53,640 nt of DNA from the NCBI GenBank assembly GCA_964484305.1, contig CAZAEI010000005.1:1-53640 (forward strand), in the 5' to 3' direction. The stretch comes from an uncultured archaeon. GTDB lineage: Archaea > Aenigmatarchaeota > Aenigmatarchaeia > QMZP01. The position numbers and the translations under genes are program-made. Position 1 is the stretch's first letter. The number at the start of each line of letters is the position of its first letter. The notes below the pieces were generated by a model. The model was not told the origin of the DNA and ran no database searches. It worked only from the letters and a program-made list of their open reading frames with translations. Below are positions 30,401 through 46,016 of the stretch, one piece after another.

Positions 30401-33400
30401 AGGATACATCCTCTGTTTCATAGTATCCCGTGAGGTTGAGGATGTTTTTTATGAAATTGCCCGGAATGTCGGGGGCGCTGCAGTTTATGTGCCAGAGCTG
30501 GTCAGTTAGATTATAGGCGCTCTGGACGTTGCCACAGAATAAGCCACCCACCACAACGTACCATGTTATGTTTTCATCCACAGGGCTGCCGCCCATGGTC
30601 GCATTGGCCGTTATGTTCAGGATATCCCACGGCACGATATCAGTAGCAGGGTTACTCTGGTTCGGGAAGAGTATGTCTATGGAGAAGTTTATAACATTGA
30701 GGGAGACAGAGACATTGATGCTCTGGGGGACGGCGTCCTCATTGTTGGCTATGGTTATGTTGGTCAGGTAGAGGCCCTCTGCATATTCGCCTGTGGTGTT
30801 GTGGTAGACCTCGAGGCTGAAGGCCGAAAACGGGGTTAGCGTGAAATTACTAGCCGAGACCGTTATGTTTCCCGTCCCGTTGGCCTGGTCATCCATGGTC
30901 ACATTGAATGACCAGTCTGCATCCTTGCTGTTTATCACCTGGATTGTCCCTATGCTCCCGTTGATGGGGGTTGGGTTGCGCCCTATGGTCTTGTTGAGAT
31001 GGGTATCAGAGACCCTCCAGTCAAGCATGCTCACATTGAGATTGAACACGAGGCTGTCCCAGCACAGGTTTGCCGGGCTGCAGTCCGAGCCAGTGGCATT
31101 TGCTGTTATGTTCGCGGTGTAGAGCCCCACTGTCGCATTATCCGGGACAGTCACTGTTATGTTCACCAGCTGCTTCCCGTCGTGGGGAATCACGCTTACC
31201 GGGGGCTCAGGCGAATAGGTCAGGTTCCACTGGCTGATCTCGCTTGCATTCCCGCCTGAAAGTGAGAAGTTAACAGAGAGCAGCTCGGTGTTCCCAAAGG
31301 ATTCCACAGTGAAGTTGCCCGCCAGGGCAGAGCCTCCCTTGGGCATTGTGTAGTTTAACTCACTCTCGACTATGTTGAGGACTGTGTTGTTCTCCACAAC
31401 AACCCCGGTGGCATTTGAGACATTCCCCTGGGAGGTATCCGAGTTTATCCAGGTCACATTCACATAGATATCCTTGAAGCCCGCTGTGGCCAGGTATGTG
31501 ACATTTACAACAGAGGTCCTGTTGCAGCTCTCTGCGGGCGGTATGGGTGGGCAGTTCACGGTCTCTGCGTGGATGCCTCCTGATGTGAGAGATGTGTTTA
31601 TCCCCACAACGACATCGTACATGCTCTCTGTAGCGCCCGTGTTTGTTATGTTGATGTAGAGGTAGTATGTACTGTTGAATATCTTGGTCAGGTTCCCGGC
31701 CGGCGTTGGGGGCGTCAGGTCTGTCCCCAGTTCCGCTGTGGTTGTTCCGGAGCTTATGTTGAACACTATCTCTGCGCTGTTGTTATCGCTCGCATTATAG
31801 AATATATCTGAGTCATTCGTAATATTGCAGACTATGCTGTGGTTGCCCTCTGAATCAGAGGAGTTTACCCAGTTTATGAGGGACACCCCATCAGAATCCG
31901 TGATATTGGAGCCTATATAAACCCCGTCCCCCCAGAAGCTCACATTGTGGCCCTCGAGCGGCTCTGAGATATTGGCATCCCAGACATAGCAGAACACATC
32001 CATACTGGCGTTCTGCCTGCACACCCAGGTATCATTATAGGTGCAGTTTGTTGATGATATGTTGCCTGCATCCAGGCTGCTCCACCCGTATATATATACA
32101 TAGAGATTCTCAACATCAGGCTTGTAGCGCTCTCCTGAGGCATTGGCAGCCACCCTCCTCAACCCAACAGTCTCATTCAGGGGAATTGTCCATGTTATGT
32201 TGTCAGAATGGTTCAGGGGTGTTTCAGAGAGTATTGACACAGTGTGCGGGTATCCCGAGTGGTAGTTTACGCAGTCCCCGCTGGAATTTGCCAGGCAGAC
32301 GTAGTCTATGTGGACATGGGAAGCGCCACCTTCACCCCCACCATCGCCATAGTCATGAACCGTGATATTGACCCAGAGCGCCGATGAGAAGGAGGCATTG
32401 TAGCAGACCTCCTCGAGCCATACACCGGTTGTGTTGTCAAGCTCGCACATACCAGAGCCAGCATATAGTCTTATGTACGCGTCATTGGCGAACTCCCCGG
32501 TGGGTTTGTACCTTATCTTTATCCCGTCCTGTCCCAGGGGCCAGCCCGCGGAAAGGCTGGCGCTCTGGAGGGCCGGGTCATCTGACCCTTTATTTTCTGA
32601 TGAGAGATAGAGTGAATAACTCCCATTGGTCTCATTGCCCTCCTGCCTGATTTCGCACTGGCAGTACTGGCCTGTGCAGTTCGAGGAGAAGCACCCCCAT
32701 GGAAGAATCACACCTGACTCAAATCCCCCGTTCTCCAGATAACCAAACTCCTCCTGCTCATCAGAGCGGTTGTAAACAACCTCATAGGTCAGGTTCTCCC
32801 ACCCTGACTGGTTGACCAGAAAGACAAGCTCTGAATAGCTGTTGAAATATTCCTGCGACCAATTTATGACAGTTCTGCTGCTGTCGTTCCATGCATTGAT
32901 TCTGCTTGGCACATCCACACCATTCAGGAGGACCCTGGTGTGGTTTATGTCCCAGTCCCCGAAATCGATGTTCCGGGCCTCCAGACCGCTGGCGTTCACT
33001 ATCACCGGAAAGGTCTGCTCATCATATCCAGGGGTCTTGTTTACAGCTGCCTCTAGCCTCCTCTTCCACTTTACAGACCAGTTAACAGAGTAGTTTCCAG
33101 GGCTGCAGAGCCCGCACGTGTCGTTCACACTCGAATTGAAGCCCGCACCATTGCCCCTGTGGAAGAGGCTGTAATCCTGCGGCTCCAGTATGGTGATATT
33201 TAACTCATCGTGCAGGGAGACATTACTCCAGTCCATTTCATTGAGGATGGAGTAGCTCCCGTTCGGCTCTGTCAGGGTCACATTGACCAGATAGTCCTGT
33301 CTTGAATACCCGCACGGAGGGGTCCAGGATATATTGCAGCGCCCGTACTCGGTTGTGTTACTGGAATCCAGATACGTATAATTGAACCAGAAGCTGCAGT

Positions 33401-36314
33401 TGAACCCCGACTGGTTGACATCAAGGCCGTACTGGTCCACCAGCCCGGCCTCGAGGCGGTTGCTCGAGTTCCTGTGAAGGATTCCCCCATCCTCCGGCGC
33501 TGTGAGGCTTATGTTGACCCTCCCGCTTACTGTAAGGACAAAGCCACTGGAGTTCGAATCATTATAGTAGGTGTCATCCCAGACCCCAACCTTCCAGGTC
33601 TGGTTCCCGGCCGAGTAGTTCCCGTCCGGGGTGAAGTGGAAGACACAGTAACCCGATGAATTTGTAGAGCTGCTGTTACCCCCATCAAAACCCGAGCCAT
33701 TGTATGTCACCCAGAGTGTGCAGCTGACGCCCCCCTGGACCCATGTCTCAGTGTCAGTGTCGTTTATCATTACCACAAGCTCCACAGACTCTGACCTGTT
33801 CACCGAGCTCTCGTTGCCAGACACATAGACAACCTCGGTGCTGTGCTTCCTGGCCAGGGGCCCCCAGTATATGATGGTGTTCCGGGAGGAGTGCATTGGC
33901 CAGCCCGAGGAATTGAAGTCCTGATACTGGAACCCATACTTATTCACCCCTGACCAGTCCTTGTCCGAGGACATGTTGAACCAGGCTGTGCCATTGCCTG
34001 TTATATTGGTTGTGCTCCCATTGAACCATGAACCCATGTTCTCCAGCCAGTACCAGAGCGTGACGCTCACGTTGTCCCCGTCCGTGTCATTGACAAAAAC
34101 AGAGTAGTTGAACCACTCTCCCCATAGGCTGTCGTTCAGCGTCACGTTCGGGCTGCTCAGGTTCGCAGGAAGATTGGTGGCCCCGCCTGCCTGGTAGCTC
34201 ACACTGGAATTGGAATAAGGCTGCACCCACCTGAAGAATGTGTCCTTCTTGCAAACATAGAATGTGTCAGAACCGCAGCTGAACGGGGCGTATACAGGAC
34301 TCCCGAAGTCGCATGAGGAATCGTCCTGCTGTGGTGTTATGTTGCATGCCTGGCCAGACCAGGTGACATTCAGGAACAGCATGCCCTTGATTGAGGAATC
34401 ATCAACAGTGGTGTTTCCCGTTATGTTATAGAATGTTGTATTGGTCTCGTTCCATATGTTTATCGTCTTGCTGGAAAGGAAGCAGTCGGTCTCATTTGTA
34501 TAGGAATACCCTGATTCATTGCCCTTCACAGGCACGGCCGATGCCATGCTGTCATCCCAGAAATGGAACGGCTCAGGGAGCGGTCCTGCCTCATTAATCG
34601 TGAAGTCCGGCACATCACATGTGTTGTCCGGGCCCACTGCAGCGGTCTGGCAGGAACTCCCGTTGAAGTCGCACCTGCTGGCAGAGCCCGGAATCTTTAT
34701 GTACCTGACCTCAATGTCATGGTCCGGGCCTGCAGGGAAGCTCACGTTCCTGACCTCATATCCCACACTCTCGTTAACCCGGATATTCCATGTCCTTGAC
34801 GACGTGTTCGTGAGATTGGCATAGCTTACCACACCGCTGGCGTTATAGGAATATGATATATTCAGGCCGGATATATTGAGCCTTCCCTTGGCATCCGAGT
34901 GAAAAATAAGGCTGGTGTTGCATAAACTCTCTCCGCAAGAATCAAGTGCATCCTGGAACTCCCCCGCTATCCCAGTAACGGTTTGCATGGCCCTGAGCTT
35001 CCCTGACTTGTTCCAGTTGTATCCATCATCACCCCCCACGTCCAGCGAAACATTGGTTGGGAAGTAATCGAAATTGAAAACGTAAAGGTTTCCGTCTGAG
35101 ATTGTGGGGACATCACCTGCAAGCATCTCGTTCCCTATATCATTTGTAACGTCTCCTATAGCCACTGTTCTGACTATCTTCCCGGTCTGGTAGCTCCAAA
35201 TCAGATCCCCCGTTGAATCCAGTGTCAATATATCCCCGTTCTCCAGGCCCGCAACGATTTCGTTTCCCGGATATTCTTCAGTTGAGTCATCAATAGCAAC
35301 GTCTCTTACAATCGAACCTGTGGAATAGTTCCAGAGTTCATCACCACTCGAGTTGATAAGATATATCCTGGTGTTCGTCCCAAGGACTATCTCATCATTC
35401 TGGTCCGAGGTGATGTTGCCCGCTCCGACGCTGTTGATGTTAGAGACACTCTTACTCCAAAGGGTGTTTCCCTGTGAGTCAAGAACATAAACATTGGAAT
35501 CCGTGCCCACAACCGTTTCATTGCCTGAGGAGGAGTTTACATCACCCAAAGCAATCTCATTTATCGCCCCTGTGAAACCTGTTGAGTTCCATGCCAGGGT
35601 CTGGTTGTCCCAGTATACATAGACAGTGCTGGAATCCGCAGCGACTATCTCATTAATCTCGTCTCCATCCAGGTCTCCTATCTCCAAAGAATTAACTGCG
35701 TTTGATGGTCCAGCTGAGACATTGAAAGTCCACGCAACGGTCCCTCCCGCATCATTACAGTCTATTATATAAACGCTATTGTTCGAGCTCCCTGTCCCGG
35801 CCACAACCTCATCTCCAGGATTATTGGTCACATTTCCGACATCAGTAGCCAGAACCTCGTAGCTTCCTCCAAGAGAAAGGCTCCATATCAGGGTTCCGTT
35901 CTCCCCGTAAAGAACCCTTATAAGGCCCTCGGCTCCATCGGTTCCAACCACCGTCTCATTCCCATTGTGGGTTGTGATGTTTCCCACAGAGAGGCCCCTC
36001 AACCCAAGGAGGTTAACGGTCTCTGTATAGATTGGCGTCATTATCCCTGTCAGGCTCATGGTTGCGTTCAAAATTGTGGAGTTCTTCGGTACCTGAACAT
36101 AATAGGTCTTGTTCCCCCCTAATATTGGGAAATCGTGTATCTGGAAATAGCCAGAATCATTGAAAGTATCTTGCTCAAACGGGAAAACAGGACTGGCCAG
36201 GTCGAGGACAAACCCCTTCTGGACAGCTGCTGTTATCTCTGGGCTTCTGTACGCAACCAGGAGAAGCAGGAATATTGCTACAACTACGGCTAACCCCGCC
36301 CTTTTTGATACCAT
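27465..36314 (-). CDS. Giant (2949 aa) surface protein fused through a TM helix to a HerA/VirB4/FtsK-like (DUF87-like) ATPase
   Basis: N-terminal signal/TM, FG-GAP-like repeats (IGDLDGDEINEIV etc.), long N/S/T-rich beta-sandwich region, TM (IILLILSMLGMGIVGYYGW). Then HIIVAGATGAGKS, MVFDEVH, REFRKWGIGIIMCSQ. Confidence 0.88.
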   Translation of the reverse strand: MVSKRAGLAVVVAIFLLLLVAYRSPEITAAVQKGFVLDLASPVFPFEQDTFNDSGYFQIHDFPILGGNKTYYVQVPKNSTILNATMSLTGIMTPIYTETVNLLGLRGLSVGNITTHNGNETVVGTDGAEGLIRVLYGENGTLIWSLSLGGSYEVLATDVGNVTNNPGDEVVAGTGSSNNSVYIIDCNDAGGTVAWTFNVSAGPSNAVNSLEIGDLDGDEINEIVAADSSTVYVYWDNQTLAWNSTGFTGAINEIALGDVNSSSGNETVVGTDSNVYVLDSQGNTLWSKSVSNINSVGAGNITSDQNDEIVLGTNTRIYLINSSGDELWNYSTGSIVRDVAIDDSTEEYPGNEIVAGLENGDILTLDSTGDLIWSYQTGKIVRTVAIGDVTNDIGNEMLAGDVPTISDGNLYVFNFDYFPTNVSLDVGGDDGYNWNKSGKLRAMQTVTGIAGEFQDALDSCGESLCNTSLIFHSDAKGRLNISGLNISYSYNASGVVSYANLTNTSSRTWNIRVNESVGYEVRNVSFPAGPDHDIEVRYIKIPGSASRCDFNGSSCQTAAVGPDNTCDVPDFTINEAGPLPEPFHFWDDSMASAVPVKGNESGYSYTNETDCFLSSKTINIWNETNTTFYNITGNTTVDDSSIKGMLFLNVTWSGQACNITPQQDDSSCDFGSPVYAPFSCGSDTFYVCKKDTFFRWVQPYSNSSVSYQAGGATNLPANLSSPNVTLNDSLWGEWFNYSVFVNDTDGDNVSVTLWYWLENMGSWFNGSTTNITGNGTAWFNMSSDKDWSGVNKYGFQYQDFNSSGWPMHSSRNTIIYWGPLARKHSTEVVYVSGNESSVNRSESVELVVMINDTDTETWVQGGVSCTLWVTYNGSGFDGGNSSSTNSSGYCVFHFTPDGNYSAGNQTWKVGVWDDTYYNDSNSSGFVLTVSGRVNISLTAPEDGGILHRNSSNRLEAGLVDQYGLDVNQSGFNCSFWFNYTYLDSSNTTEYGRCNISWTPPCGYSRQDYLVNVTLTEPNGSYSILNEMDWSNVSLHDELNITILEPQDYSLFHRGNGAGFNSSVNDTCGLCSPGNYSVNWSVKWKRRLEAAVNKTPGYDEQTFPVIVNASGLEARNIDFGDWDINHTRVLLNGVDVPSRINAWNDSSRTVINWSQEYFNSYSELVFLVNQSGWENLTYEVVYNRSDEQEEFGYLENGGFESGVILPWGCFSSNCTGQYCQCEIRQEGNETNGSYSLYLSSENKGSDDPALQSASLSAGWPLGQDGIKIRYKPTGEFANDAYIRLYAGSGMCELDNTTGVWLEEVCYNASFSSALWVNITVHDYGDGGGEGGASHVHIDYVCLANSSGDCVNYHSGYPHTVSILSETPLNHSDNITWTIPLNETVGLRRVAANASGERYKPDVENLYVYIYGWSSLDAGNISSTNCTYNDTWVCRQNASMDVFCYVWDANISEPLEGHNVSFWGDGVYIGSNITDSDGVSLINWVNSSDSEGNHSIVCNITNDSDIFYNASDNNSAEIVFNISSGTTTAELGTDLTPPTPAGNLTKIFNSTYYLYINITNTGATESMYDVVVGINTSLTSGGIHAETVNCPPIPPAESCNRTSVVNVTYLATAGFKDIYVNVTWINSDTSQGNVSNATGVVVENNTVLNIVESELNYTMPKGGSALAGNFTVESFGNTELLSVNFSLSGGNASEISQWNLTYSPEPPVSVIPHDGKQLVNITVTVPDNATVGLYTANITANATGSDCSPANLCWDSLVFNLNVSMLDWRVSDTHLNKTIGRNPTPINGSIGTIQVINSKDADWSFNVTMDDQANGTGNITVSASNFTLTPFSAFSLEVYHNTTGEYAEGLYLTNITIANNEDAVPQSINVSVSLNVINFSIDILFPNQSNPATDIVPWDILNITANATMGGSPVDENITWYVVVGGLFCGNVQSAYNLTDQLWHINCSAPDIPGNFIKNILNLTGYYETEDVSFPAEETDAVIYRDVTAPQIHDIRVVNSDVDDEGNLQYSGSRSEVVMESDLTDNENVTSAWAWIYYEGTLRNTSGMYEISPGTWKFNFSSSLTEGDYRAVVFANDSTGNEANTSSSLMGYFDLYHPIDLNGTLADKDGVAIEANFTFYKSGTLWEIHDRFSANSSGGYNHTLHRRVYDTKLGFSGHEVLLYGVDVNASAVNQHGVEYPDNLTSPITLDLYTAENTTQIGVTLPEGAENPIMVIALEHNLTRTSSITSFSLDYTQALQDFYTYTPIGSITESSLGVYRCSNWSISERSCTGGFENVSISASVDTIEDRVGFNTTGASSYVVAEWEGTGENGNGNGDDGTGSTGGSSRSSIVSTITTTIPFTVTTSIGSIRIHPGENKTYLFSVKNKASENLTVSLDVQGLEDFIFPEKSLLEIAYNGSESIDVVVSVPDTMGTGTYTGSILVTAAGRSQEIPITMTVSIEAKDLVSLSINILTPNVNPGGKLRFGVELKNLALPPGFNVSIVYIIKDSERERVVADASEYVFLEESLAFTKSIEMKGNNPTGQYYLDIWAYFADGKSVNEVAVFNLVEPYWSSWEGKIILLILSMLGMGIVGYYGWGLYKKWKSERARYIFPINYRKMPQESGDSFWIGRVAETDRNAWFNPADLTTHIIVAGATGAGKSVGASVFVEEALDKNIPVIVFDPTAQWTGFVKALEDRNLMKYYSMFGMDPKSTRPFKGMIFEVTDPQELLRDIKKGFKKYLAPGEITVFALDKLKPGQYDEAVGIIIDSLFSMNWEESTTLKVIMVFDEVHRLLEKYGGKGGYVSLEKAAREFRKWGIGIIMCSQVLADFKEAIAGNVLTEVQLNTKSITDIQKVETKYGGEYAKKISRQGVGVGMLQNPKYNDGKPYFVQFRPTWHNPHKISNKEMELYSDFAGRLEEIDVKIERLKKAGEDTFEIELELKLARDKLKQGRFRMAQIYITSLEQHLSKGE

Positions 36315-36390
36315 GTATTATAATTACTTAACTTCATAATAAACCTTAACGGTTAACGTTGCGACAACTAACCAATAAAAAGCATCGGTT

Positions 36391-36606
36391 CTACTTTGCG
36401 TTCTTGATGACTTCCCTGAGGCTGGCTACTTCCTTCCTGAGCTCCCTCATCTCGTTGCTGAGCTGGAGCTCCTCCTCATCGAACTTCCTTGTTATCACCC
36501 TGAGTTGCCTGAACTCGAACTCCAGGATGACGAGGTAGACAACCACCACCGTGGAGAATATGACGAGCAACTCCAGTATGGGTACGTCAATGCCGAATAT
36601 GTACAT
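36391..36606 (-). CDS. 71-aa bitopic membrane protein with a C-terminal coiled coil
   Basis: Hydrophobic LELLVIFSTVVVVYLVIL followed by heptads; its ATG directly follows the upstream TAG. Confidence 0.7.
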   Translation of the reverse strand: MYIFGIDVPILELLVIFSTVVVVYLVILEFEFRQLRVITRKFDEEELQLSNEMRELRKEVASLREVIKNAK

Positions 36607-39600
36607 CTAGATACCCCCGTACGCCTGCGGCCTCCTTGACCTTACCTCCCTCAGACGCCTGAAGGAGAAGTATATCAATATCAGAGACACCATCACTATC
36701 ATGAGAATCTCAAGGGATTCGGGAATGCCCCCTGACACACCCATTACATAGAAGTTCCCTGTGGCAGAGGCCAGGACAGCAAAGTCCTCCCTGAATCTTG
36801 CCGAGGCGACATACATGCCGGACGGGGCAGCAGCGGGAATCACGAACTTCTCGTATGTCTCGGTCTTCTCCAGGGGCTCCATCCCCTCCAGACTCTCTAT
36901 GTTGGTGAATATCACATCCATTCCAGGCGTGTATATCTCAACCTCAAGGTAGGGATAATCAATCTTCTCCCCCCCGTTAATCACCAGGATCTCCAGGCTC
37001 ACGGGGCTGTTGAGGTTATACCTGTCCCTGTCAGGTGTTATTATAATAGTCGGGTAGCTCTCCTTGTATATCACCGTTATGGTCTTGAGCAGGCCTGCAT
37101 CCATCCTATCCACGGTTATGCTGCTAGTCTCCGGGCCCCCTGTGAATGGAAGCCTGTTGCCAAAACCATCCCTCACCTCCTCCACGTTCTGATAGGCAAT
37201 GGGAAGATTCAGGATAACATTCTCATAGCTCTCCTGGGCAAAGCTCTTGAGGTAGACATCCATCTTGAGCCTGACCTTCTTTTCAGGCAGCTGCTCCAGA
37301 ACCTCGATATCCCTGTCTATCTCAAGGACAGGGGGCGTCAGCACAGTAACCTCATAACTCCTGGTCTCAAATGCATTTATCGAGCCCTGCCATTGCATGA
37401 CCCTCCTTCCCTGTGAGTCCTTTGAGAATACAACAACCTCTTCTATCCTCCTTCCACTTTCATCAAAATAGCTTACATATCCGTCTGTTGCATCATCAAA
37501 AACCACGGCTTCGAAATCTGAACTGAGCCTTCTCGGATTCGGGTTGTATACATCAAAGTCCTTGTTCCATACAGCGGGCTTGCCCACAAGCACGGTCTTG
37601 GACTGCTTGAGTTCCCCCTCATCTATTGTCAGGGGTATGTTGGGCTCTGGTATGACTACCTTAACCACTCCATAGAGTGTGGTTGCCAGGGATGCTCCTG
37701 TATCAGGGTCGAATGCAGCTATCATGACAGGAAGCACATATGCCCCGGGGGTGGTGAAGTTTATCTGGTAAATAACCTCTATGTATTCATCATTCGTGAG
37801 GTTCCAGCCCTGGTATGTCCCGTTCACGAACTCGAACATCTGGACAGTTAGGCCATCTGAAAGGCTTGTCGTCCCGTTATCGGTTATATGGTAATCCACA
37901 CCATAGGTCAATACAGTGCCGTTGCGAATCACAACAGCATCGCCATTAGAGAAATTACCCCAATAGTCAGTATAGCTTATGGTGTTGTCAGGGACATAAT
38001 CCATGAACTTTATTCCTGATATGCCAGAACCCATGGTGTCCTCAACAGAAATGTTTATGGTTGTATTAATCAGCGTGGGGGTGCCGGGTGTGTAGGCTAT
38101 GAGGTCCTTGTAGCCAGTTATCCTCTTTCCTGACACAGTGACTGTCTGGTTGTTGAAGTATTCCCTGTCCTGGGTGTCAGAACTCGAGTTGAGTTGCCCG
38201 ATGCCCGAGAATACGTATTCATCACCGGTTGTCATCGCAATATCGGATGTGACCTTATATGATATCGTCAGGTTGTCGCTGTCGCTGCCACCGTTCGAAT
38301 TAAAGGTGTGACCGACCTTGTCCGATGTGCCCCAGAATACGCAGTTGGGAAGGTCGTATATGCTGACATTAACAAGACCGTCAGAGCTTTCTGTGGGGTC
38401 TGTTATCTCCAGCACGCAGTTGCTGTCGTTCTTGAGCCTGTAGGTTTCGTTCAGGTATATCACGACATCGTCCTGTATGTCCCAGCCGCTCCCCCTCCAG
38501 TACCCCAGATGTGTTTTGCTGGGAACATAGGAAAGAATCTGTACAAAATGGGGCTCTGTCTCATTGGCACCCACATTGTGAAGGGTGTCGTTTATTGTCA
38601 CATTTTCACCACCCATTTCAGGGGAGATCGTGCCAGAGACTGACTTTATACCATCCAGGTCGACCATGTATAGCACGGGAAGGTCCAGTGTTGTGTTTAT
38701 GTATGTTATATTGTTCTCGCTGTTTGTGGAGTTCCATATCACCTCCCAATTAAAGTAGACAGCTATATAGGGCTTGGAACCCGACGATGTATTGAACATG
38801 GTCTTGTTCGATGACCTTGAGGCATCGGTTGTGTATATCCTCCCATCATCGGGCGTTATGAGGTCAGTGGTCCCCGGAGTCACATTGAATCTCCCTGTCT
38901 GGTTGGCCGTGTCATAGGGCACACCCGATGACTGTATCTCATATATACCCCATTCGCTTATGTTGTATGTTAGGTTGTAGCCAGTGTCTGCTGCATCGCC
39001 CATGTTCCTTATGAGGCCCCTCACATACCAGAACCCCCCGTTTGAGGAGAGGTCAACACCATGCCTGATTGGTCCCCTAGTGAACTTGTCAGAAACCGTT
39101 ACCCCCGAGAACATATAGCTCGTGTTTGAATAGGTGGCGTTCTGACCGTCCCCTGAACCGGGCTGCAGGTCCACGCTGTCCGTCGTTCCGCTTATGTGAA
39201 CCCCTCCCGTTATGTTCAGCACGACAGTCAGGTTGACAGTCGAGGCTTTCCCTACATCCACGCTCGACCATGTTATGTAATCATTGAGTGTGCCAGTATC
39301 ATCACCACCATCATCAGAGACGGATACTGAACCGTCCTGTGCCGATGTGTCTATAACCGCAGGCTCGTCATTACCCTCAACATCCTTTACAAAGTTGATG
39401 ATTGATGTGATATCAACAAGGTCCCTTGTCGAGCTCGGGTTAGTGAGGCTGAAAACCAGGGTCATGTTGTTGTCAGGGTCATCTATGTTGGACTCATCAT
39501 AGAGGTCGTATCCCCCCCTGTCATTGGAATAATAAACCGAGAGGTTTATGGTCGGGGCAATGTTGGCAACATCATTGTCTATTGTGTAGCTGGTTGAGGA

Positions 39601-39966
39601 GTAGTCACCGGTGATGTTGACATAGAGGAGACTCCACTTGTCATCGGTGGGAAAGGATGTCAGAACATCCTGGTATACGGTGTCGTTATCTATGTCGGTA
39701 TTTGTGTTGTATCCGGAGTCAAGAGTCACCCTCATGTACTGGAGCACATCCTCATTGTTGGGAACAGACGCAAAGAACTGTCCGGTCCTTGCGGCAGTGG
39801 TCTTCACTGTCCCGTTGTGATAGTATTCGCCTGTCACATCCTCCTGTATCAGGAGCTTGGGCCCGTATATCTGGGCACGGGCACCCCCCAGAAGCACCGC
39901 TGTTAATATGAAGACAACACCTGTAACTAGAAGAATCCTTCTTGCCATCCACAAAGAAAGCCGCAT
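36607..39966 (-). CDS. Large C-terminally anchored surface (S-layer/adhesin-like) protein, paralog 1
   Basis: Signal peptide, Ig-like beta-rich body with many NxS/T sequons, C-terminal TM plus basic tail. Start at 39966 or 39948. Confidence 0.75.
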   Translation of the reverse strand: MRLSLWMARRILLVTGVVFILTAVLLGGARAQIYGPKLLIQEDVTGEYYHNGTVKTTAARTGQFFASVPNNEDVLQYMRVTLDSGYNTNTDIDNDTVYQDVLTSFPTDDKWSLLYVNITGDYSSTSYTIDNDVANIAPTINLSVYYSNDRGGYDLYDESNIDDPDNNMTLVFSLTNPSSTRDLVDITSIINFVKDVEGNDEPAVIDTSAQDGSVSVSDDGGDDTGTLNDYITWSSVDVGKASTVNLTVVLNITGGVHISGTTDSVDLQPGSGDGQNATYSNTSYMFSGVTVSDKFTRGPIRHGVDLSSNGGFWYVRGLIRNMGDAADTGYNLTYNISEWGIYEIQSSGVPYDTANQTGRFNVTPGTTDLITPDDGRIYTTDASRSSNKTMFNTSSGSKPYIAVYFNWEVIWNSTNSENNITYINTTLDLPVLYMVDLDGIKSVSGTISPEMGGENVTINDTLHNVGANETEPHFVQILSYVPSKTHLGYWRGSGWDIQDDVVIYLNETYRLKNDSNCVLEITDPTESSDGLVNVSIYDLPNCVFWGTSDKVGHTFNSNGGSDSDNLTISYKVTSDIAMTTGDEYVFSGIGQLNSSSDTQDREYFNNQTVTVSGKRITGYKDLIAYTPGTPTLINTTINISVEDTMGSGISGIKFMDYVPDNTISYTDYWGNFSNGDAVVIRNGTVLTYGVDYHITDNGTTSLSDGLTVQMFEFVNGTYQGWNLTNDEYIEVIYQINFTTPGAYVLPVMIAAFDPDTGASLATTLYGVVKVVIPEPNIPLTIDEGELKQSKTVLVGKPAVWNKDFDVYNPNPRRLSSDFEAVVFDDATDGYVSYFDESGRRIEEVVVFSKDSQGRRVMQWQGSINAFETRSYEVTVLTPPVLEIDRDIEVLEQLPEKKVRLKMDVYLKSFAQESYENVILNLPIAYQNVEEVRDGFGNRLPFTGGPETSSITVDRMDAGLLKTITVIYKESYPTIIITPDRDRYNLNSPVSLEILVINGGEKIDYPYLEVEIYTPGMDVIFTNIESLEGMEPLEKTETYEKFVIPAAAPSGMYVASARFREDFAVLASATGNFYVMGVSGGIPESLEILMIVMVSLILIYFSFRRLREVRSRRPQAYGGI

Positions 39967-40031
39967 ATTAATATTTAATGGTATGGTAAATATATAAAAC
40001 TTATACAAAACTTGTCTAATTTCCAGGATAT

Positions 40032-43000
40032 TTATCTTAATTCCCTCAGCTTCCTCTTGAGCTCCCCTATACCCTCCGGCCTCTTCCTCCTCCAGAACCT
40101 GAACAGCAGGTAGCCTATTGCTGCCAGGGCCACGGCCAGGAATACCATCCAGCTCAATGAAACAATGGTCCTTTCAGGGCAGTTCACATAGAAGTCTGAG
40201 TGGTCTGTAAGTATGGTCTGGAAGTCCTTCTTGAACCTGCTATAGACCGAATACTTCCCGTCAGAGAAGCTCCTCAAGTCCACCGAAAAGGGCAGCCTGA
40301 CCTCTTCCCATGGCCAGACATCCTTCATCTCCACAAGCTGGGCATTCATGGTCTTGAGGTGGGGACTGGGTCCCACCACCTCAATCTCCAGGTAGGAGCC
40401 TGTCTCCCTTTCAGAGGGGATTACGAACACCGTTATGTTGGCATAATCGCTGCACCCGTGCATCACCGCACCCATGGCAGTCAGAAGTATTGGCGGGACC
40501 TCTGTATAGACTATCGTGAGCTCCCTCTTCCGGCCAGCCTCCATCCTTCCCAGGAATATCTCTGTGGTAGAGTTGTCATATTCACTGTAGTTTAGCAGGT
40601 TCTCCCCCTCCATCACATATACAACGTTGCCGGTCCCTGACTTGAACAGGAGAGACACCCCGCTATAGACCTCGAGTGCAAAGTTCTCCACAGTGGTATT
40701 GACCACGAATCTTATCTCCCTCTCACCCGATTCCAGGACATTCACAACCCTCTTGGTTTCCAAGACAGGCGGTGTTACAGCCTCCAAGACATAGGTCTTG
40801 GTCTCACCAGACTTCAGCCTGAACGTGATGTCCACATGGGTTGTTTCACCCTCCTTGAGAGCCAGGGATTCCCTGTCTCCCCCCTCCCGAATGACATGGG
40901 CGCTCAGGGTGTCAGGAAAGACCTCCAGCCTCATTAAGTGCTCCACAGAGACACTGTTTGGATTATGAACCGTCAGGCCCTTTGTCCATCTTACAGGGAC
41001 GCCCACACGCACCCCCTCTACTTGCCATCCCCCATCCACGACCTCAAGGTCCTGAAGAATCCCCTCCCTCCTGACAGGGATGTACATATCCTCAAATATG
41101 TATTTATCCTCATAGTAGTTGTAGCCAAACACCCTTGTTATAAGGAAGCTGGTTCCCACAGGAACCGTGGTTTTGTAGCTGATCTCTATCTTGTCCCCAT
41201 TGAACAGGTTCAGGCTCTCCTCAAGCAGCCCGCCTGATGTAATCTTGGTTATAAGGTATTCCCTGTGCCTTCTGCCATTCACCAAGGTCATGCCGTTATC
41301 GGTCATCTTGTAGTCATTTCCCGGGTTCCACTCAATCCATTTCCCCGAAGAGTTTTCATATATCCTGAATGAGAGGGATGAGATGTCAAGGCTCCCGTAC
41401 TCGGGTATGTAAATAACGGCCTTGATATCCTTTACCCCCTTGTTCCCTGTATCAATTATATTATATCTTGCCAGAACACGGACGAGGTTATCTGCTATAA
41501 AGTAGCCCTCTCCCATCTCCCTTGCTATGTCAGCATACATGGCGGGTTCAACAGGCCCTCCGCCAGGGCCACCCGGTTCAGGCTCTCCACCAACCCCCGG
41601 AATGACCACATCCTGGCATACATTCTTGGTCACAGGCGTGCCCGAGAGCGTGACCAGTGTGGATGTCTGGCAGAACTGATATGTATGTGTGCTGGCATGG
41701 GAGCCCCCTGCCACGTCATACTCAAGCCTTATATCCTCATTCTGCTGGAGGCCGTGGCCCAGAAGAGAAGTTAAATTGTTTATGCTTACATTCACAAAAC
41801 CATCGTTCAGGGTGGTGGCTGCCTGGGTCATTATGGAGACCTGGGTGGTTATCTCTGTCTGTCCAGATGCGTTTATATAGAACACCCTGACATCAGATGG
41901 GGCCCAGTTGTTGCTTGTACCCCCGGCTGACTGATGTGGTATGACAGAGCCTATACTAACAGAACCGACTGAGAGGCCTGAATGCCCGATGTGCCTGGCC
42001 AGGTCCTGTACCGACAGGCCCGTTCCGCTCTCGGTGCTGTACCCCACAACTACGCTCTTGTCCACCCATGCATCTATCTCATAGAGCACAGGCAGGCTTA
42101 TGGTAGCCTGGCTCATGCTTGAATAATATGACGAACCCCAGACTACCTCCCAGTCCCAGGACGTGCTGTAATATCCTCCCTTGTCCTGCATTCCCGGAAG
42201 GCCTGTGTCATACCAGTCCGTATATTTGGTTTCGCCTGGGTTGAAGGGATATATCTCCTCACTTGAGGATATGACCGGAGAGCCCTGACCTATCTGATAC
42301 AGCCCCCATCCGTGTATCCTGTAGTCCAGTCCCAGTGCCATGTTCCTGATGAAACCCCTCACTATCCATGTATCCATGGTGAGCATATCCACACCCACCC
42401 TCACCGGGCCGCGGGAGAACCTGTCAACAAAGCTTATCCCAGTGGGGGTGGATGTTCCTGTACTTGTGTGGGTGGCCTGGCTCGTGGTCTCCTGGTCAAG
42501 GTCCACATACATGAAGTTTTCATTAAAGTTCACATCGGGTGTGATGTATCCCCGGAAGTATATCTCCACATCCACGCCGGCTGACAGGGGACCAGTCCAG
42601 GAGAGCATATCAAAGAAGCCGTCCCCGTCAGAATCCCAGGAATCACTATTCCCTGAGGTGGGGGATACCCCATAGAGGTGAATGGAATCATTGAGACCAA
42701 GCGTGTTCCTGGCGAACCTCAGGTAGACAGAGACCCCGTTCAGGTCATGCGTGGAGTTTATGGTCAGATCGAAGCTGAATGAATTGGTTCCGCCCGAATA
42801 GATGTCCCTCCCCCCGGCATCGTTTGCATACTCCATGCCAAGGTATATCACCGGCATCACACCACCGGTTATATTATAGCTTATGTTGCTCTCGCTGCTT
42901 GTTGTGTTGACATAGAGCCTGGTCCTGTCACCGGGGCTTGGTGATGCCGCCACCCCCCTGTAGGTAAGGGTTGACTGAAGGTTTGTGTTGGCGGTTCCAG

Positions 43001-43229
43001 AGAGCTCAAGAACGAGATACTGGAGAACATCCAGCTGGTTCGGGACCTCGACCTCCACGTATCCAAGGCACACCACCGGGCTTACCAGGGAGCCGTCTGT
43101 GTTGTAATCTGCACCGGAAACCTCTGTTATATAGGATGTCGGAACATCCGCCCTGGCGACAGCCGGATATAAAAGCAGGGAAACCAAACTTATCACTAGG
43201 ACGGACTTCCAATGGGCTGGCCAAACCAT
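40032..43229 (-). CDS. Large C-terminally anchored surface protein, paralog 2
   Basis: Collinear motifs shared with paralog 1 (VPNxxDVLQY, RGPxRxGVD, WxVRGxIRNM, WEVxW, LPVLY, TPPVLE); C-terminal TM. Confidence 0.75.
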   Translation of the reverse strand: MVWPAHWKSVLVISLVSLLLYPAVARADVPTSYITEVSGADYNTDGSLVSPVVCLGYVEVEVPNQLDVLQYLVLELSGTANTNLQSTLTYRGVAASPSPGDRTRLYVNTTSSESNISYNITGGVMPVIYLGMEYANDAGGRDIYSGGTNSFSFDLTINSTHDLNGVSVYLRFARNTLGLNDSIHLYGVSPTSGNSDSWDSDGDGFFDMLSWTGPLSAGVDVEIYFRGYITPDVNFNENFMYVDLDQETTSQATHTSTGTSTPTGISFVDRFSRGPVRVGVDMLTMDTWIVRGFIRNMALGLDYRIHGWGLYQIGQGSPVISSSEEIYPFNPGETKYTDWYDTGLPGMQDKGGYYSTSWDWEVVWGSSYYSSMSQATISLPVLYEIDAWVDKSVVVGYSTESGTGLSVQDLARHIGHSGLSVGSVSIGSVIPHQSAGGTSNNWAPSDVRVFYINASGQTEITTQVSIMTQAATTLNDGFVNVSINNLTSLLGHGLQQNEDIRLEYDVAGGSHASTHTYQFCQTSTLVTLSGTPVTKNVCQDVVIPGVGGEPEPGGPGGGPVEPAMYADIAREMGEGYFIADNLVRVLARYNIIDTGNKGVKDIKAVIYIPEYGSLDISSLSFRIYENSSGKWIEWNPGNDYKMTDNGMTLVNGRRHREYLITKITSGGLLEESLNLFNGDKIEISYKTTVPVGTSFLITRVFGYNYYEDKYIFEDMYIPVRREGILQDLEVVDGGWQVEGVRVGVPVRWTKGLTVHNPNSVSVEHLMRLEVFPDTLSAHVIREGGDRESLALKEGETTHVDITFRLKSGETKTYVLEAVTPPVLETKRVVNVLESGEREIRFVVNTTVENFALEVYSGVSLLFKSGTGNVVYVMEGENLLNYSEYDNSTTEIFLGRMEAGRKRELTIVYTEVPPILLTAMGAVMHGCSDYANITVFVIPSERETGSYLEIEVVGPSPHLKTMNAQLVEMKDVWPWEEVRLPFSVDLRSFSDGKYSVYSRFKKDFQTILTDHSDFYVNCPERTIVSLSWMVFLAVALAAIGYLLFRFWRRKRPEGIGELKRKLRELR

Positions 43230-43397
43230 GTATAATAATTATCCTGAATAATAAATAAAGCAGACCTATCAATACTTTACACGCCAATTTCATAGTATAG
43301 GATTCTAACGGAATATCGGAAAGATGCTATCCATAGACTTATATAACAAGATATGTAAGCCTAAATTGATAAAGAATATACGATAAGGCATGGAAAA

Positions 43398-44747
43398 ATG
43401 ACTGAAATCCCTGTATGCAAAATTGAAGTAAAGGGAAAATCAGAGCAAATCACAATAAAGAAAGGTGCTGTTAATCTCAAAAACAACAATATTCTTCTCT
43501 TAAGGTCTTCACAAGAAAACATCTCTTGGCTGGCTAAAGTGTCTTCGCATGGTTATTCTAATTACATTCGTTTGACCTCAAATCTAAAACAAAGACCTAC
43601 TGATATTGAGGTTATTAAAATAGCTAAAGTAGGCGAAAGACCTCCCCTTGGGCCGCTTTCTAGAAACCAAGTGGATATATTGAACTTTATTAATGATAAT
43701 TGTACATGCATAGAAAGACCTCAAGGAAATGTTAGCATATACAAGCCACCCAAAGGACCCAGCATAACAATAAAAAGAATAATAAACCTGGACGAAGATT
43801 TAGCATGGTCAATAGGATTTTACCTCGCCGAAGGTCCTAAGGTCAGTTATGGTGTTGGAATAACCAATCACGAACTTTATCTTTTAAAACACTTTCAAGA
43901 GTCTATAGAAAAGAATTTTGATATTCAAAATAAAGAGTGGTTTGTTTATATCCATTCTCGTAATAAAGATAGTTCTAAAAAATTTAAAAGCAGGATTGTG
44001 CGCATCTTCCAAACAAATAAAATTAGTGATGTCAAGGCCAGATTAGCAACTAAAGATACTATTGAATTAAAAATTAACAATACCTTATTTGCCATTATTT
44101 TTAACCAATTTGTTTCAAAAGCAATAGAATTAATATTAGAAGATACATCTCTTGCTTTGGCGTTTTTAAAAGGCTATGAAATTGGCGATGGTTGTATTCT
44201 TCAACGTAATAGCTGCTATTTATATGGTATATGTATAACAACTAAAAACAACAGCAACAAAGAAATTTTAGTAAAAACATTGCAAAAATTGTATAATAAA
44301 AAACCAAGAATAAGAAGTAATAAAGGCTGTTATGAGATTACATGTACAGGAATAAATTTAATGACAGAATTTATTTTGGATGAACATTTTTCTTCATCAC
44401 CAAAACAGTGGAAAAAAATAATAAATTCTTATCTTAAGAAACAATATACAAGATCCCACATTAGATATTGGTTGGCATTAAAAAATAAAAAATTGCTTAC
44501 AAGAGAAATGGCACAAATTGCTGGTAGATCATATTGGTCGGTTCTAGATGCTATGAATAAAGATGCAAAATTAGGATTGATAAAAACTGAAAAGAGAAGG
44601 TTTCCTAACAAAGCGGGTCTCCACAATATTTATTCCCTCACAAACAAGGGGGACAAGCTATTGAGTTTAATAGGAGGTGTTGATGAAAAAACCAATTCGA
44701 GTAGCCTTGATGGGAGCTGGGGGAAGAGACAGGCGCTGGCCCTCTAA
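43398..44747 (+). CDS. Free-standing two-motif LAGLIDADG endonuclease with a C-terminal winged HTH
   Basis: LAWSIGFYLAEG and LAFLKGYEIGDG motifs; C-terminal TREMAQIAGRSYWSVLDAM...IYSLTNKG. Strongly AT-rich; overlaps the next gene by 65 nt. Confidence 0.8.
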   Translation: MTEIPVCKIEVKGKSEQITIKKGAVNLKNNNILLLRSSQENISWLAKVSSHGYSNYIRLTSNLKQRPTDIEVIKIAKVGERPPLGPLSRNQVDILNFINDNCTCIERPQGNVSIYKPPKGPSITIKRIINLDEDLAWSIGFYLAEGPKVSYGVGITNHELYLLKHFQESIEKNFDIQNKEWFVYIHSRNKDSSKKFKSRIVRIFQTNKISDVKARLATKDTIELKINNTLFAIIFNQFVSKAIELILEDTSLALAFLKGYEIGDGCILQRNSCYLYGICITTKNNSNKEILVKTLQKLYNKKPRIRSNKGCYEITCTGINLMTEFILDEHFSSSPKQWKKIINSYLKKQYTRSHIRYWLALKNKKLLTREMAQIAGRSYWSVLDAMNKDAKLGLIKTEKRRFPNKAGLHNIYSLTNKGDKLLSLIGGVDEKTNSSSLDGSWGKRQALAL

Positions 44748-46016
44748 TTCCACAACTTCCTTGTATACTTTAAGGACAACCCAACCTACAAAGTCGTATG
44801 CTTTACGGCTACCCAGATACCTGGAATAGAAAACAGAACATTCCCAAAAGAGTTTGCTGACAAGCTTTATACCAGAGGTATACCTATCTATCCCGAGGAA
44901 AGACTACCAGAACTTATCAGGAAATATAAAATCGATATGGTGGTCCTGGCCTACAGCGACCTCTCCCACGCAGACGTGATGCACAGGGCAAGCCTGGTTA
45001 ATTCCCTGGGTCCTGACTTTGTCCTTATGGGAACCAGGAACACCATGCTGAAATCCCGCAGGCCTGTGATAGCCGTGACTGCCGTGAGGACGGGCTGCGG
45101 CAAGTCCCAGACCACCAGGAAGCTCGCCATGATTCTCAAAACCCTTGGAAAGAGGGCCGCCGTGGTCAGGCACCCCATGCCCTATGGAGACCTCAGGAAG
45201 CAGGCCTGCCAGAGGTATGAGCGCTTCAAGGACCTTGACATACACAGGTGCACAATCGAGGAGAGGGAGGAATACGAACCACTTATAGAGGACTCTGACA
45301 TACTCTATGCCGGGGTTGACTATGAAAGAATTCTCAGGGAGGCTGAGGGGGAGGCCGATGTCATAATCTGGGACGGCGGGAACAACGACACCCCCTTCTT
45401 CAGACCAGACCTCCACATCGTCATAGTAGACCCCCACAGGGCCTTCCATGAGATATCATACCATCCCGGCGAGACCAACTTCAGAATGGCCGACGTGATC
45501 ATAATCAACAAGGAAAGGACCGCACCAGAGGGCAGCGTGAGGATAATCAGGGAGCACATCAGGGCATACAACCCCAAGGCCACGGTTGTGGATGCGAACT
45601 CTGTGATAACAGTGAACGACCCCGCCCTTATCCAGGGCAGGCGCGTCCTGGTTGTTGAGGACGGCCCCACCCTGACCCACGGCGGTATGTCCTATGGCGC
45701 CGGGACAATTGCGGCCAGGCATTTCTCTGCCAGACCAGTGGACCCCAGGCCCTATGCCACGGACTCCATAAAGAGGGTCTTCATGAAATACCCGCACCTC
45801 GGCAATGTCCTGCCGGCCATGGGATACTCTGAGAAGCAGGTGAGGGAGCTCGGGCGCACCATAAACAGGGTCAAATGCGACGCCGTCATATCCGGCACCC
45901 CAATAGACCTGAGAAGGATAATCCATGTCAGGAAACCCATAGTCCGGATACATTACAACCTCGAGGAGACCAGCAGGCCCAACCTCACGGACATAGTTAA
46001 GGACTTCCTCAAATAA
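44683..46016 (+). CDS. P-loop GTPase, COG2403 / cyclic 2,3-diphosphoglycerate synthase-like; predicted spliced, join(44683..44730,44748..46016), 438 aa
   Basis: GGAGGTG RBS and ATG at 44683. Exon 1 MKKPIRVALMGAGGRD joined to FHNFLVYFKDNPTYKVVCFTATQIPGI restores the family motif GRDFHNF. Also AVRTGCGKSQT, WDGGNND, EDGPT. Confidence 0.85.
44731..44747 (+). other. Candidate 17-nt bulge-helix-bulge (BHB) mRNA intron
   Basis: AGGCGCTGGCCCTCTAA. Forms a 3-nt bulge (ACA), a 4-bp helix (AGAG/CUCU) and a 3-nt bulge (AAU). Cleavage after the second nt of each bulge excises exactly these 17 nt. Confidence 0.82.

Follow-up and report, generated by a model that had tools for sequence, protein, structure and literature searches.

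We analysed a stretch of 53,640 nt from contig CAZAEI010000005.1 of an uncultured archaeon (hereafter the window), in which a gene for a predicted LAGLIDADG homing endonuclease with a winged helix-turn-helix (wHTH) domain adjoins a COG2403-type gene, hereafter the host gene, whose coding sequence is interrupted by 17 nt. An AT-rich island extends from 43230 to ~44950, with a GC content of 0.25-0.37 in the island and of 0.52-0.60 in both flanks. The island contains a single long open reading frame (ORF), 43398-44747, which codes for 449 residues and ends on a TAA codon at 44745-44747. An earlier interpretation made from the DNA alone (the sequence-only reading) had placed the ribosome-binding site (RBS) and the first exon of the host gene inside this ORF, and that arrangement can indeed be read from the sequence. 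The main features of the locus are the following.

43398..44747, + strand: free-standing LAGLIDADG-wHTH endonuclease gene, 449 residues, GC content 0.33 (predicted from Pfam, PDB profile and predicted fold)
44673..44678, + strand: RBS of the host gene, GGAGGT, within the endonuclease ORF (read from the sequence)
44683 (ATG)..44730, + strand: exon 1 of the host gene, 16 codons, 48 nt, MKKPIRVALMGAGGRD, of the endonuclease-associated type, in another frame than the endonuclease ORF
44731..44747, + strand: 17-nt insert, almost certainly a bulge-helix-bulge (BHB) micro-intron, AGGCGCTGGCCCTCTAA (the same junction is uninterrupted in the related loci L027 and L028)
44748..46016, + strand: exon 2 of the host gene, 438 residues once spliced (BLASTN homology to L027 and L028 resumes exactly at 44748)

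The product of the host gene is predicted to be a COG2403-type 'predicted GTPase / cyclic 2,3-diphosphoglycerate synthase-like' protein, for which NCBIfam holds no family. Removal of 44731-44747 joins the codons GGA AGA GAC to TTC CAC AAC and restores the sequence GRD|FHNF, with the bar at the intron site. Among the 120 closest homologues, the motif is uninterrupted in 118 if natural variants at the His and Asn residues are tolerated (108 have strictly GRDFHN), and the spliced protein of 438 residues has homologues up to 83% identical across 100% of its length. Without splicing, the host gene would yield only a 50-residue peptide. Gene callers annotate just the 359-residue remainder (P0003), and the conserved N-terminal motif of the family is encoded by exon 1. 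A GGAGG sequence likewise precedes the host start in L001, L007 and L003. Downstream of the TAA codon at 44745-44747, the frame of the endonuclease ORF remains open to 46016.

The insert and the adjoining exon bases can be arranged in an hBHBh' motif, in which the closing helices h (exon) and h' (intron) are defined as at least 2 bp long (PMC7714728). Its elements in the window are as follows.

44722..44751, + strand: entire hBHBh' motif (from the sequence; same geometry in 28 of the 28 alleles checked)
44722-44724 with 44749-44751, + strand: helix h, GGA/TCC
44725-44728 with 44742-44745, + strand: central helix H of 4 bp, AGAG/CTCT
44729-44731 and 44746-44748, + strand: bulges ACA and AAT, on opposite strands
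44732-44734 with 44739-44741, + strand: helix h', GGC/GCC, closed by the loop GCTG

Each 3-nt bulge is located 3' of its central-helix strand. The splicing enzyme cleaves after the second base of each bulge, and in this hand-derived structure the predicted cuts fall exactly at 44730/44731 and 44747/44748. The minimum-energy fold of 44700-44780 resembles the BHB, though its energy is no better than that of shuffled sequence (z = -0.23). Since the motif is short and its folding energy alone is at chance level, the case for an intron is built on comparison with other loci.

We collected 29 distinct inserts of 16-31 nt, all located at the same codon junction, GRD|FHNF. They come from the contexts of all long-ORF relatives and from two pattern scans constraining exon sequence only, which demanded GGAGC..GGAMGNGA in exon 1 and TTYCAYAAYTT in exon 2 and miss other codons. 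The named records with an intron belong to Aenigmatarchaeota, Micrarchaeota and Caldarchaeum/Nitrososphaerota. In all 28 alleles tabulated, the central helix has four of its four pairs and is flanked by 3-nt bulges on opposite strands. Helix h has three of three pairs in 27 of these 28, and h' has two to four of its first four pairs in each allele, which corresponds to per-helix pairing of 98.6% and 90.6%, respectively. In a fixed-register alignment of 24 alleles (alignment A1), 96.2% of the cells are paired, compared with at most 58% in controls with slid partners. Six pairs vary on both sides in this alignment, and 46 cells are compensatory versus 14.5 +/- 2.8 in shuffles, none of which reached 46 (n = 500). 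The central helix covaries with the Arg codon of exon 1, giving the variants AGAG/CTCT, AGGG/CCCT, CGTG/CACG and CGCG/CGCG. Bulge 1 begins with AC or AT (Asp) in all alleles but L007, where it begins with AG (Glu). The last base of bulge 2, which belongs to the Phe codon, is T throughout, while the intron-side positions of both bulges vary freely. Fixed exon-side and free intron-side bases are as predicted by cutting after the second base of the bulge. Excision at these points restores GRD|FHNF (GRE in L007) in 29 of 29 alleles, whatever the length of the intron.

It might be objected that the 17 nt are not an intron, and that the locus is a frameshifted pseudogene or is read by ribosomal frameshifting, by bypassing or from an internal start (ATG 44937). 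The annotation of the 359-residue remainder by gene callers and the unexceptional folding energy of the region would fit such explanations. Nevertheless, all lengths modulo 3 occur among the 29 inserts and unspliced read-through meets a stop in every allele, which excludes frameshifting and simple insertions; in particular, frameshifting cannot explain the inserts with a length divisible by 3, since these contain in-frame stops. Furthermore, 29 independent inserts share one codon junction and canonical BHB folds with covariation, and both exons are intact and conserved at 56-88% identity, including the N-terminal motif in exon 1. We therefore regard these explanations as very improbable. Based on the geometry and the covariation, the insert is almost certainly a BHB intron of the splicing-endonuclease type, and the sequence-only reading was right to propose one.

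Other classes of intervening sequences were considered. A group I or group II intron is ruled out by the size of the insert, 17 nt, and by the lack of any Rfam match in the window; Rfam and tRNA scans of the whole window returned no match. An intein is also ruled out, as the endonuclease ORF begins 5' of exon 1, crosses it in another reading frame and terminates at a stop codon. The pattern scans also returned matches in L018 (5165-5218, a bacterial record of Paenibacillaceae), L039 and L042, which have no coding context for the N-terminus of the family upstream. We set them aside as probable chance matches, about one of which had been estimated beforehand for the genome scan.

We next describe the product of the AT-rich ORF, of which three regions can be delineated.

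43797..43841, + strand: LAGLIDADG motif 1, LAWSIGFYLAEGPK (GFYLAEG), with the acidic residue E145 (alignment A2/A3)
44151..44192, + strand: LAGLIDADG motif 2, LAFLKGYEIGDG (GYEIGDG), with the acidic residue D264 (alignment A2/A3)
44400..44675, + strand: C-terminal helical and winged-helix DNA-binding domain, predicted (secondary structure of the model; Foldseek matches to MarR/PadR-type regulators; PDB sequence match 2d1h)

The protein matches the Pfam family LAGLIDADG_3 with 25.2 bits, for a gathering cut-off of 22.5, and a profile of its family searched against the PDB matches I-DmoI and VMA inteins (intein endonucleases). The AlphaFold2 model (predicted local distance difference test score, 85.2; predicted template modelling score, 0.84) has the LAGLIDADG fold, with two alpha-beta-beta-alpha-beta-beta-alpha domains. 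Foldseek matched its core to I-DmoI, I-Tsp061I, E-DreI, I-SceI and intein endonucleases, each with probability 1.00, and also to WhiA (3hyi/3hyj). It matched the C-terminus to MarR-type winged helices. E145 and D264 are invariant across 13 homologues that are just 31-66% identical to the protein of the window (alignment A2/A3). Sequence and model thus support the prediction of a catalytically intact LAGLIDADG-wHTH endonuclease.

This endonuclease family is tiny, with 12 related proteins found among 5.8 billion, and one more copy detected by DNA search (L017). Each of the 13 copies is intact, and the comparison revealed no pseudogene. Residues 1-130 (43398-43790) form an all-beta N-terminal domain that is present in the long forms and missing from those of 305-363 residues. 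For the complete model, the best Foldseek matches were to endonuclease-containing VMA inteins, and NCBIfam gave a weak match to the region of the RpoA'' intein; the family may descend from an intein endonuclease. Searches for a vector found no relative of the endonuclease on plasmids, and only a 29%-identical LAGLIDADG core on viral contigs. The ATG at 43390, which is equivalent to the endonuclease start of L001 and L002, is out of frame in the window (ATGGAAAAATGA), and the ORF begins at the ATG at 43398.

Analyses of the genetic environments revealed that the endonuclease gene lies directly upstream of the COG2403-type host gene in 11 of the 11 loci with readable context. The intron is present in 10 of these 11 informative loci (the window, L001, L002, L003, L007, L008, L010, L017, L050 and L053). 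P0132 and L006 have no usable junction, and L041 has too little upstream DNA to be scored. Since an intron could be present in no more than 2 of the 120 closest homologues of the host protein, 10 out of 11 is very unlikely to arise by chance. Even at an assumed base rate of 20%, the binomial probability is <1e-6, for loci that are phylogenetically non-independent. The dependence is one-way: the endonuclease gene goes with intron-bearing alleles, but the intron does not depend on the endonuclease gene. The stop codon of the endonuclease gene is 0-65 nt away from the intron, which contains no ORF.

The sequence-only reading had also drawn attention to the coincidence between this stop codon and the last three bases of the intron. 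The coincidence is peculiar to the window. In L003, L007, L008, L010 and L053 the stop codon is located before the host start or overlaps with it, in L001 it falls within exon 1, and in L002 it straddles the 5' splice site; the C-terminal tails of the endonuclease family are not conserved. A functional role of the shared codon was therefore rejected; in the window, the endonuclease ORF simply stays open until it meets the UAA that is conserved in the 3' bulge.

Comparisons with close relatives showed how the block is inserted. The limits of the exchanged DNA are given by the following features.

43230..43264, no strand assigned: native AT-rich intergenic spacer, common to the syntenic loci L027 and L028 (BLASTN homology ends at 43264)
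43265..43397, + strand: 5' end of the foreign block, which forms the leader of the endonuclease gene and contains a conserved element with a TATA-like box (about 43303-43350); missing from L027 and L028
44748..44950, + strand: 5' part of exon 2, with a low GC content at third codon positions (GC3) and little identity to L027; might represent a co-conversion tract, the extent of which is uncertain (identity between the window and L027)

L027 and L028/L029 are syntenic with the window, with the same upstream gene coding for 1065 residues, followed by genes for TrkA and a glutamate-synthase-like protein and by further genes. They have neither the endonuclease gene nor the intron, and their spacer is only 41 nt long. 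BLASTN aligned 39407-43264 of the window with 2126-5994 of L027, and with L028 up to 5994. Because homology stops at 43264 and resumes at 44748, a block of 1483 nt (43265-44747) replaces 51 native bases, namely 6 nt of leader and an exon 1 of 45 nt. The endonuclease gene, the replacement exon 1 and the intron thus occur jointly in the window and are jointly missing from L027 and L028. The exon 1 of the window is 89% identical to that of L007, an endonuclease locus, and 60% identical to those of the syntenic L027 and L028, which are about 91% identical to each other (manual count). The leader element ...TCTAACGGAATATCGGAAAG..CTATCCATAG.CTTATATA is also common to the window and to endonuclease loci, L002 and L007.

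The exchange may extend into exon 2. As the sequence-only reading had noted, the AT-rich codon usage continues into the host gene, with GC3 values of 0.48 and 0.58 in the first two blocks of 60 codons and of 0.65-0.83 later. In the spliced coding sequence, the identity between the window and L027 is 0.57-0.68 within the initial ~180 nt and reaches 0.84-0.93 past nt ~225. A co-converted tract of ~250 nt is therefore clear relative to L027. However, L028, which carries neither element, is 80% identical to the window over the 5' part of exon 2 (44748-44950). As L028 shares this allele, both the extent of the tract and the direction of the exchange are uncertain. The mobile unit proposed by the sequence-only reading, i.e. 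the endonuclease gene plus a replacement 5' segment of the host gene, is supported for the block that includes exon 1 and the intron, the ~250-nt tract being ambiguous.

L028 is itself a mosaic. Its positions 6046-6160, aligned with 44748-44860 of the window, combine a native exon 1 with an exon-2 start of the window/L007 type (FHNFLVYFK...GIENRTFPKE), with long identical runs. This organization suggests that the block was once gained and then lost, or that recombination occurred immediately 3' of the junction.

Across the loci, the endonuclease gene shows the signature of a mobile element, namely a single site, a patchy presence and a foreign composition. Its GC content of 0.26-0.39, versus 0.34-0.55 for host DNA, is 7 to 23 GC points lower in 11 of 11 loci. 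The endonuclease of the window is 69% identical to that of L001 and 57% identical to that of L002, which is syntenic with the window; for the body of the host gene the order is reversed (56% with L001 and 73% with L002). For each of five alleles that have both the endonuclease gene and the intron, the nearest neighbours are intron-less. In L017, which has an endonuclease gene, and L037, which has none, the flanks are 87% identical, and a clean 1.2-kb indel carrying the endonuclease gene replaces the spacer. As for the genome of the window, the best named matches of its family-B DNA polymerase are from Aenigmatarchaeota (~62% identity), and it is, on this marker, an Aenigmatarchaeota-like DPANN archaeon. 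The exchange would thus have taken place within DPANN, and the idea of a methanogen window with a DPANN donor was dropped.

These features make it doubtful that the protein is a domesticated factor, which could regulate the downstream gene in the manner of WhiA or assist in splicing. WhiA, a bacterial LAGLIDADG-HTH transcription factor, has the same architecture of a LAGLIDADG scaffold followed by a helix-turn-helix, as the Foldseek matches to 3hyi/3hyj illustrate. The intact state of 13 out of 13 copies, the fixed position, the operon-like arrangement with a stop overlapping the host start, and the retention of the gene in a Micrarchaeota cluster in which every allele already has the intron would all be consistent with a cellular function. 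Nevertheless, both catalytic acidic residues are invariant in the endonuclease family, unlike in WhiA, which we take to have lost them and to be vertically conserved. In addition, the gene is patchy among close relatives, it is compositionally foreign in every genome, its phylogeny is incongruent with that of the host gene, and two-thirds of the intron alleles are found without it. A domesticated factor thus appears improbable.

We favour instead, as the most likely mechanism and with slightly better than even confidence, an archaeal counterpart of phage collaborative homing that acts at the 5' end of the host gene. The endonuclease gene is inserted between the promoter and the start codon of the host gene, together with a leader of its own and with a replacement RBS and exon 1. 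The enzyme would cut intron-less alleles at or near the sequence coding for GRD|FHNF, about 50-65 bp downstream of its own gene, and repair from an endonuclease-bearing donor would copy the block composed of the endonuclease gene, exon 1 and the intron. As the intron would split the target, the carrier chromosome would not be cut. In the mRNA, the tRNA-splicing endonuclease (EndA) would excise the intron and RNA ligase would join the exons, with ...GGAAGAGAC|TTCCACAAC as the predicted spliced junction, and the host protein would be preserved. The endonuclease gene could be lost later and leave a harmless intron behind; such losses after the spread of the intron are proposed to account for the many intron-only alleles. 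The more specific proposal of a two-part selfish system, in which a free-standing LAGLIDADG endonuclease spreads a BHB micro-intron that serves as an antidote by splitting the target of the enzyme, is more tentative, and we see it as slightly more likely to be wrong than right.

Several observations weigh against collaborative homing. Firstly, 19 of the 29 distinct introns, including all the Caldarchaeum alleles, occur without an endonuclease gene. For most of these 19, the upstream DNA inspected was 1.5 kb or longer, and relaxed tblastn searches found no endonuclease remnants upstream of the intron-only alleles. Many contigs are short, and as the pattern scans needed particular codons, these allele counts are lower bounds drawn from a biased sample. 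Secondly, L051/L052 has an intact endonuclease gene next to an uninterrupted junction, GGGAGAGAT|TTTCACAAT, with the host ATG one base out of frame. Thirdly, L017 and L037 share nearly the same intron, which collaborative homing accounts for only through loss of the endonuclease gene. Fourthly, in a Micrarchaeota cluster the intron is present in all alleles and yet the endonuclease is intact at 46-56% identity; an intact endonuclease with no remaining targets is unexpected for a purely selfish gene. Lastly, as the endonuclease gene ends ~0-65 nt from the intron, their co-transfer could reflect linkage and shared ancestry. The perfect co-occurrence of the two elements anticipated by the sequence-only reading is thus not seen, given the 19 introns without endonuclease and the intron-less L051/L052. 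Their independence, which would have argued against that reading, is found in one direction, as the intron does occur alone and the endonuclease gene is with the intron in 10 of 11 loci. As a whole, the sequence-only reading is partly supported.

As a separate observation on L051 (4040-4130) and L052, the gene caller begins the host gene at a downstream GTG, and the same sequence is found in contigs from two samples.

An alternative is that the intron and the endonuclease are both real but functionally unrelated. The target would then be elsewhere, in the spacer or the start region of the host gene or at the start of the upstream gene, and the endonuclease gene would first have landed beside an intron-bearing allele, hence the tight linkage. 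The short distance between the two elements, the frequent occurrence of the intron without the endonuclease and the intron-less locus L051/L052 are in line with this explanation, as is the L017/L037 indel, which spans the spacer and the endonuclease gene only, with the same exon 1 and intron in both loci. However, the introns at endonuclease loci are of very different types (16-31 nt, with four variants of the central helix), and the segment replaced in the window includes exon 1 and the intron. Endonuclease loci are also scattered among intron-less relatives, and across such divergence recombination should have paired the endonuclease gene with an intron-less allele, by far the more common type, in more than one of the 11 loci. 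We therefore consider linkage without a functional relationship unlikely, though to be reckoned with.

The candidate target itself shows some variation. The second codon past the intron site, within 44748-44756 of the window, codes for the His residue of FHNF. Among the 20 closest intron-less homologues, five (P0005, P0007, P0008, P0010 and P0021) have Phe, Gln or Asn in its place, versus 3 of 98 more distant ones (Fisher p = 0.0035). These replacements could be target-site escape from the endonuclease.

Collaborative homing was described for the free-standing endonuclease F-CphI adjacent to the group I intron of psbA in cyanophage S-PM2 (Zeng, Bonocora and Shub; PMC6083498), and a further phage case is T4 mobE with I-TevIII (PMC2790892). 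As in these systems, a free-standing endonuclease gene adjoins a gene interrupted by an intron that encodes no endonuclease, and the intron also occurs without the endonuclease. In phages the intron interrupts the target and both elements move by gene conversion; here, the target and its cleavage are putative. The locus differs from the phage systems in its location on archaeal chromosomes, in the type of enzyme (LAGLIDADG instead of Endo VII-like or HNH) and in its 17-nt intron, which would be spliced by proteins, in contrast with self-splicing group I ribozymes. Furthermore, the endonuclease gene overlaps the start of the host gene and supplies its RBS and exon 1. Among archaeal enzymes, I-DmoI and I-Tsp061I have the same fold, the same single-chain form with two motifs and an association with BHB-spliced introns. 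They are encoded inside long rRNA introns. The present endonuclease is distinguished by an additional wHTH at the C-terminus, and its long form also by a beta domain at the N-terminus.

In reviews published up to 2025, the example given for a BHB intron in an mRNA is cbf5 (PMC7714728, PMC12397907), essentially the only protein-coding family named for archaea; the COG2403-type gene would be the second. The new family comprises 29 alleles in three phyla, and the host gene is routinely mis-annotated as a truncated gene. Like the cbf5 intron, the present one is a short mRNA intron with a BHB motif, a predicted removal by the tRNA-splicing endonuclease and a patchy pattern of gain and loss. It differs in its host, a COG2403 GTPase-like gene, and in the lineages concerned, Aenigmatarchaeota, Micrarchaeota and Caldarchaeum. 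We found no description of the intron or the endonuclease in the literature searched, which lay outside subscription journals. To our knowledge, introns of 16-31 nt are among the shortest of this type, and we know of no report for cbf5 of a pairing with an endonuclease gene such as that seen here in some genomes. The locus provides a first candidate mechanism for the movement of BHB introns, with which the invasion of archaeal protein genes by introns becomes testable. If the proposal is true, endonuclease-driven gene conversion would be a route for BHB introns into archaeal protein genes across phyla, and intron-only 'fossils' would be left once the endonuclease is lost. The endonuclease would also represent a new LAGLIDADG-wHTH scaffold with a defined candidate target.

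Lastly, some neighbouring genes deserve mention. In L050, on a Micrarchaeota-like contig, an archease gene (2503-2940) lies directly upstream of the endonuclease gene, which may be a coincidence. Archease is a cofactor of the RNA ligase RtcB, which joins exons cut at BHB motifs. In the window, three very large consecutive ORFs of 2949, 1133 and 1065 residues occupy 27465-43229 on the minus strand. The counterparts of the latter two in relatives have no Pfam hits on record. The ORFs look like surface proteins. The 1065-residue ORF is divergent from the host gene, from which only the 41-nt spacer separates it in the relatives.

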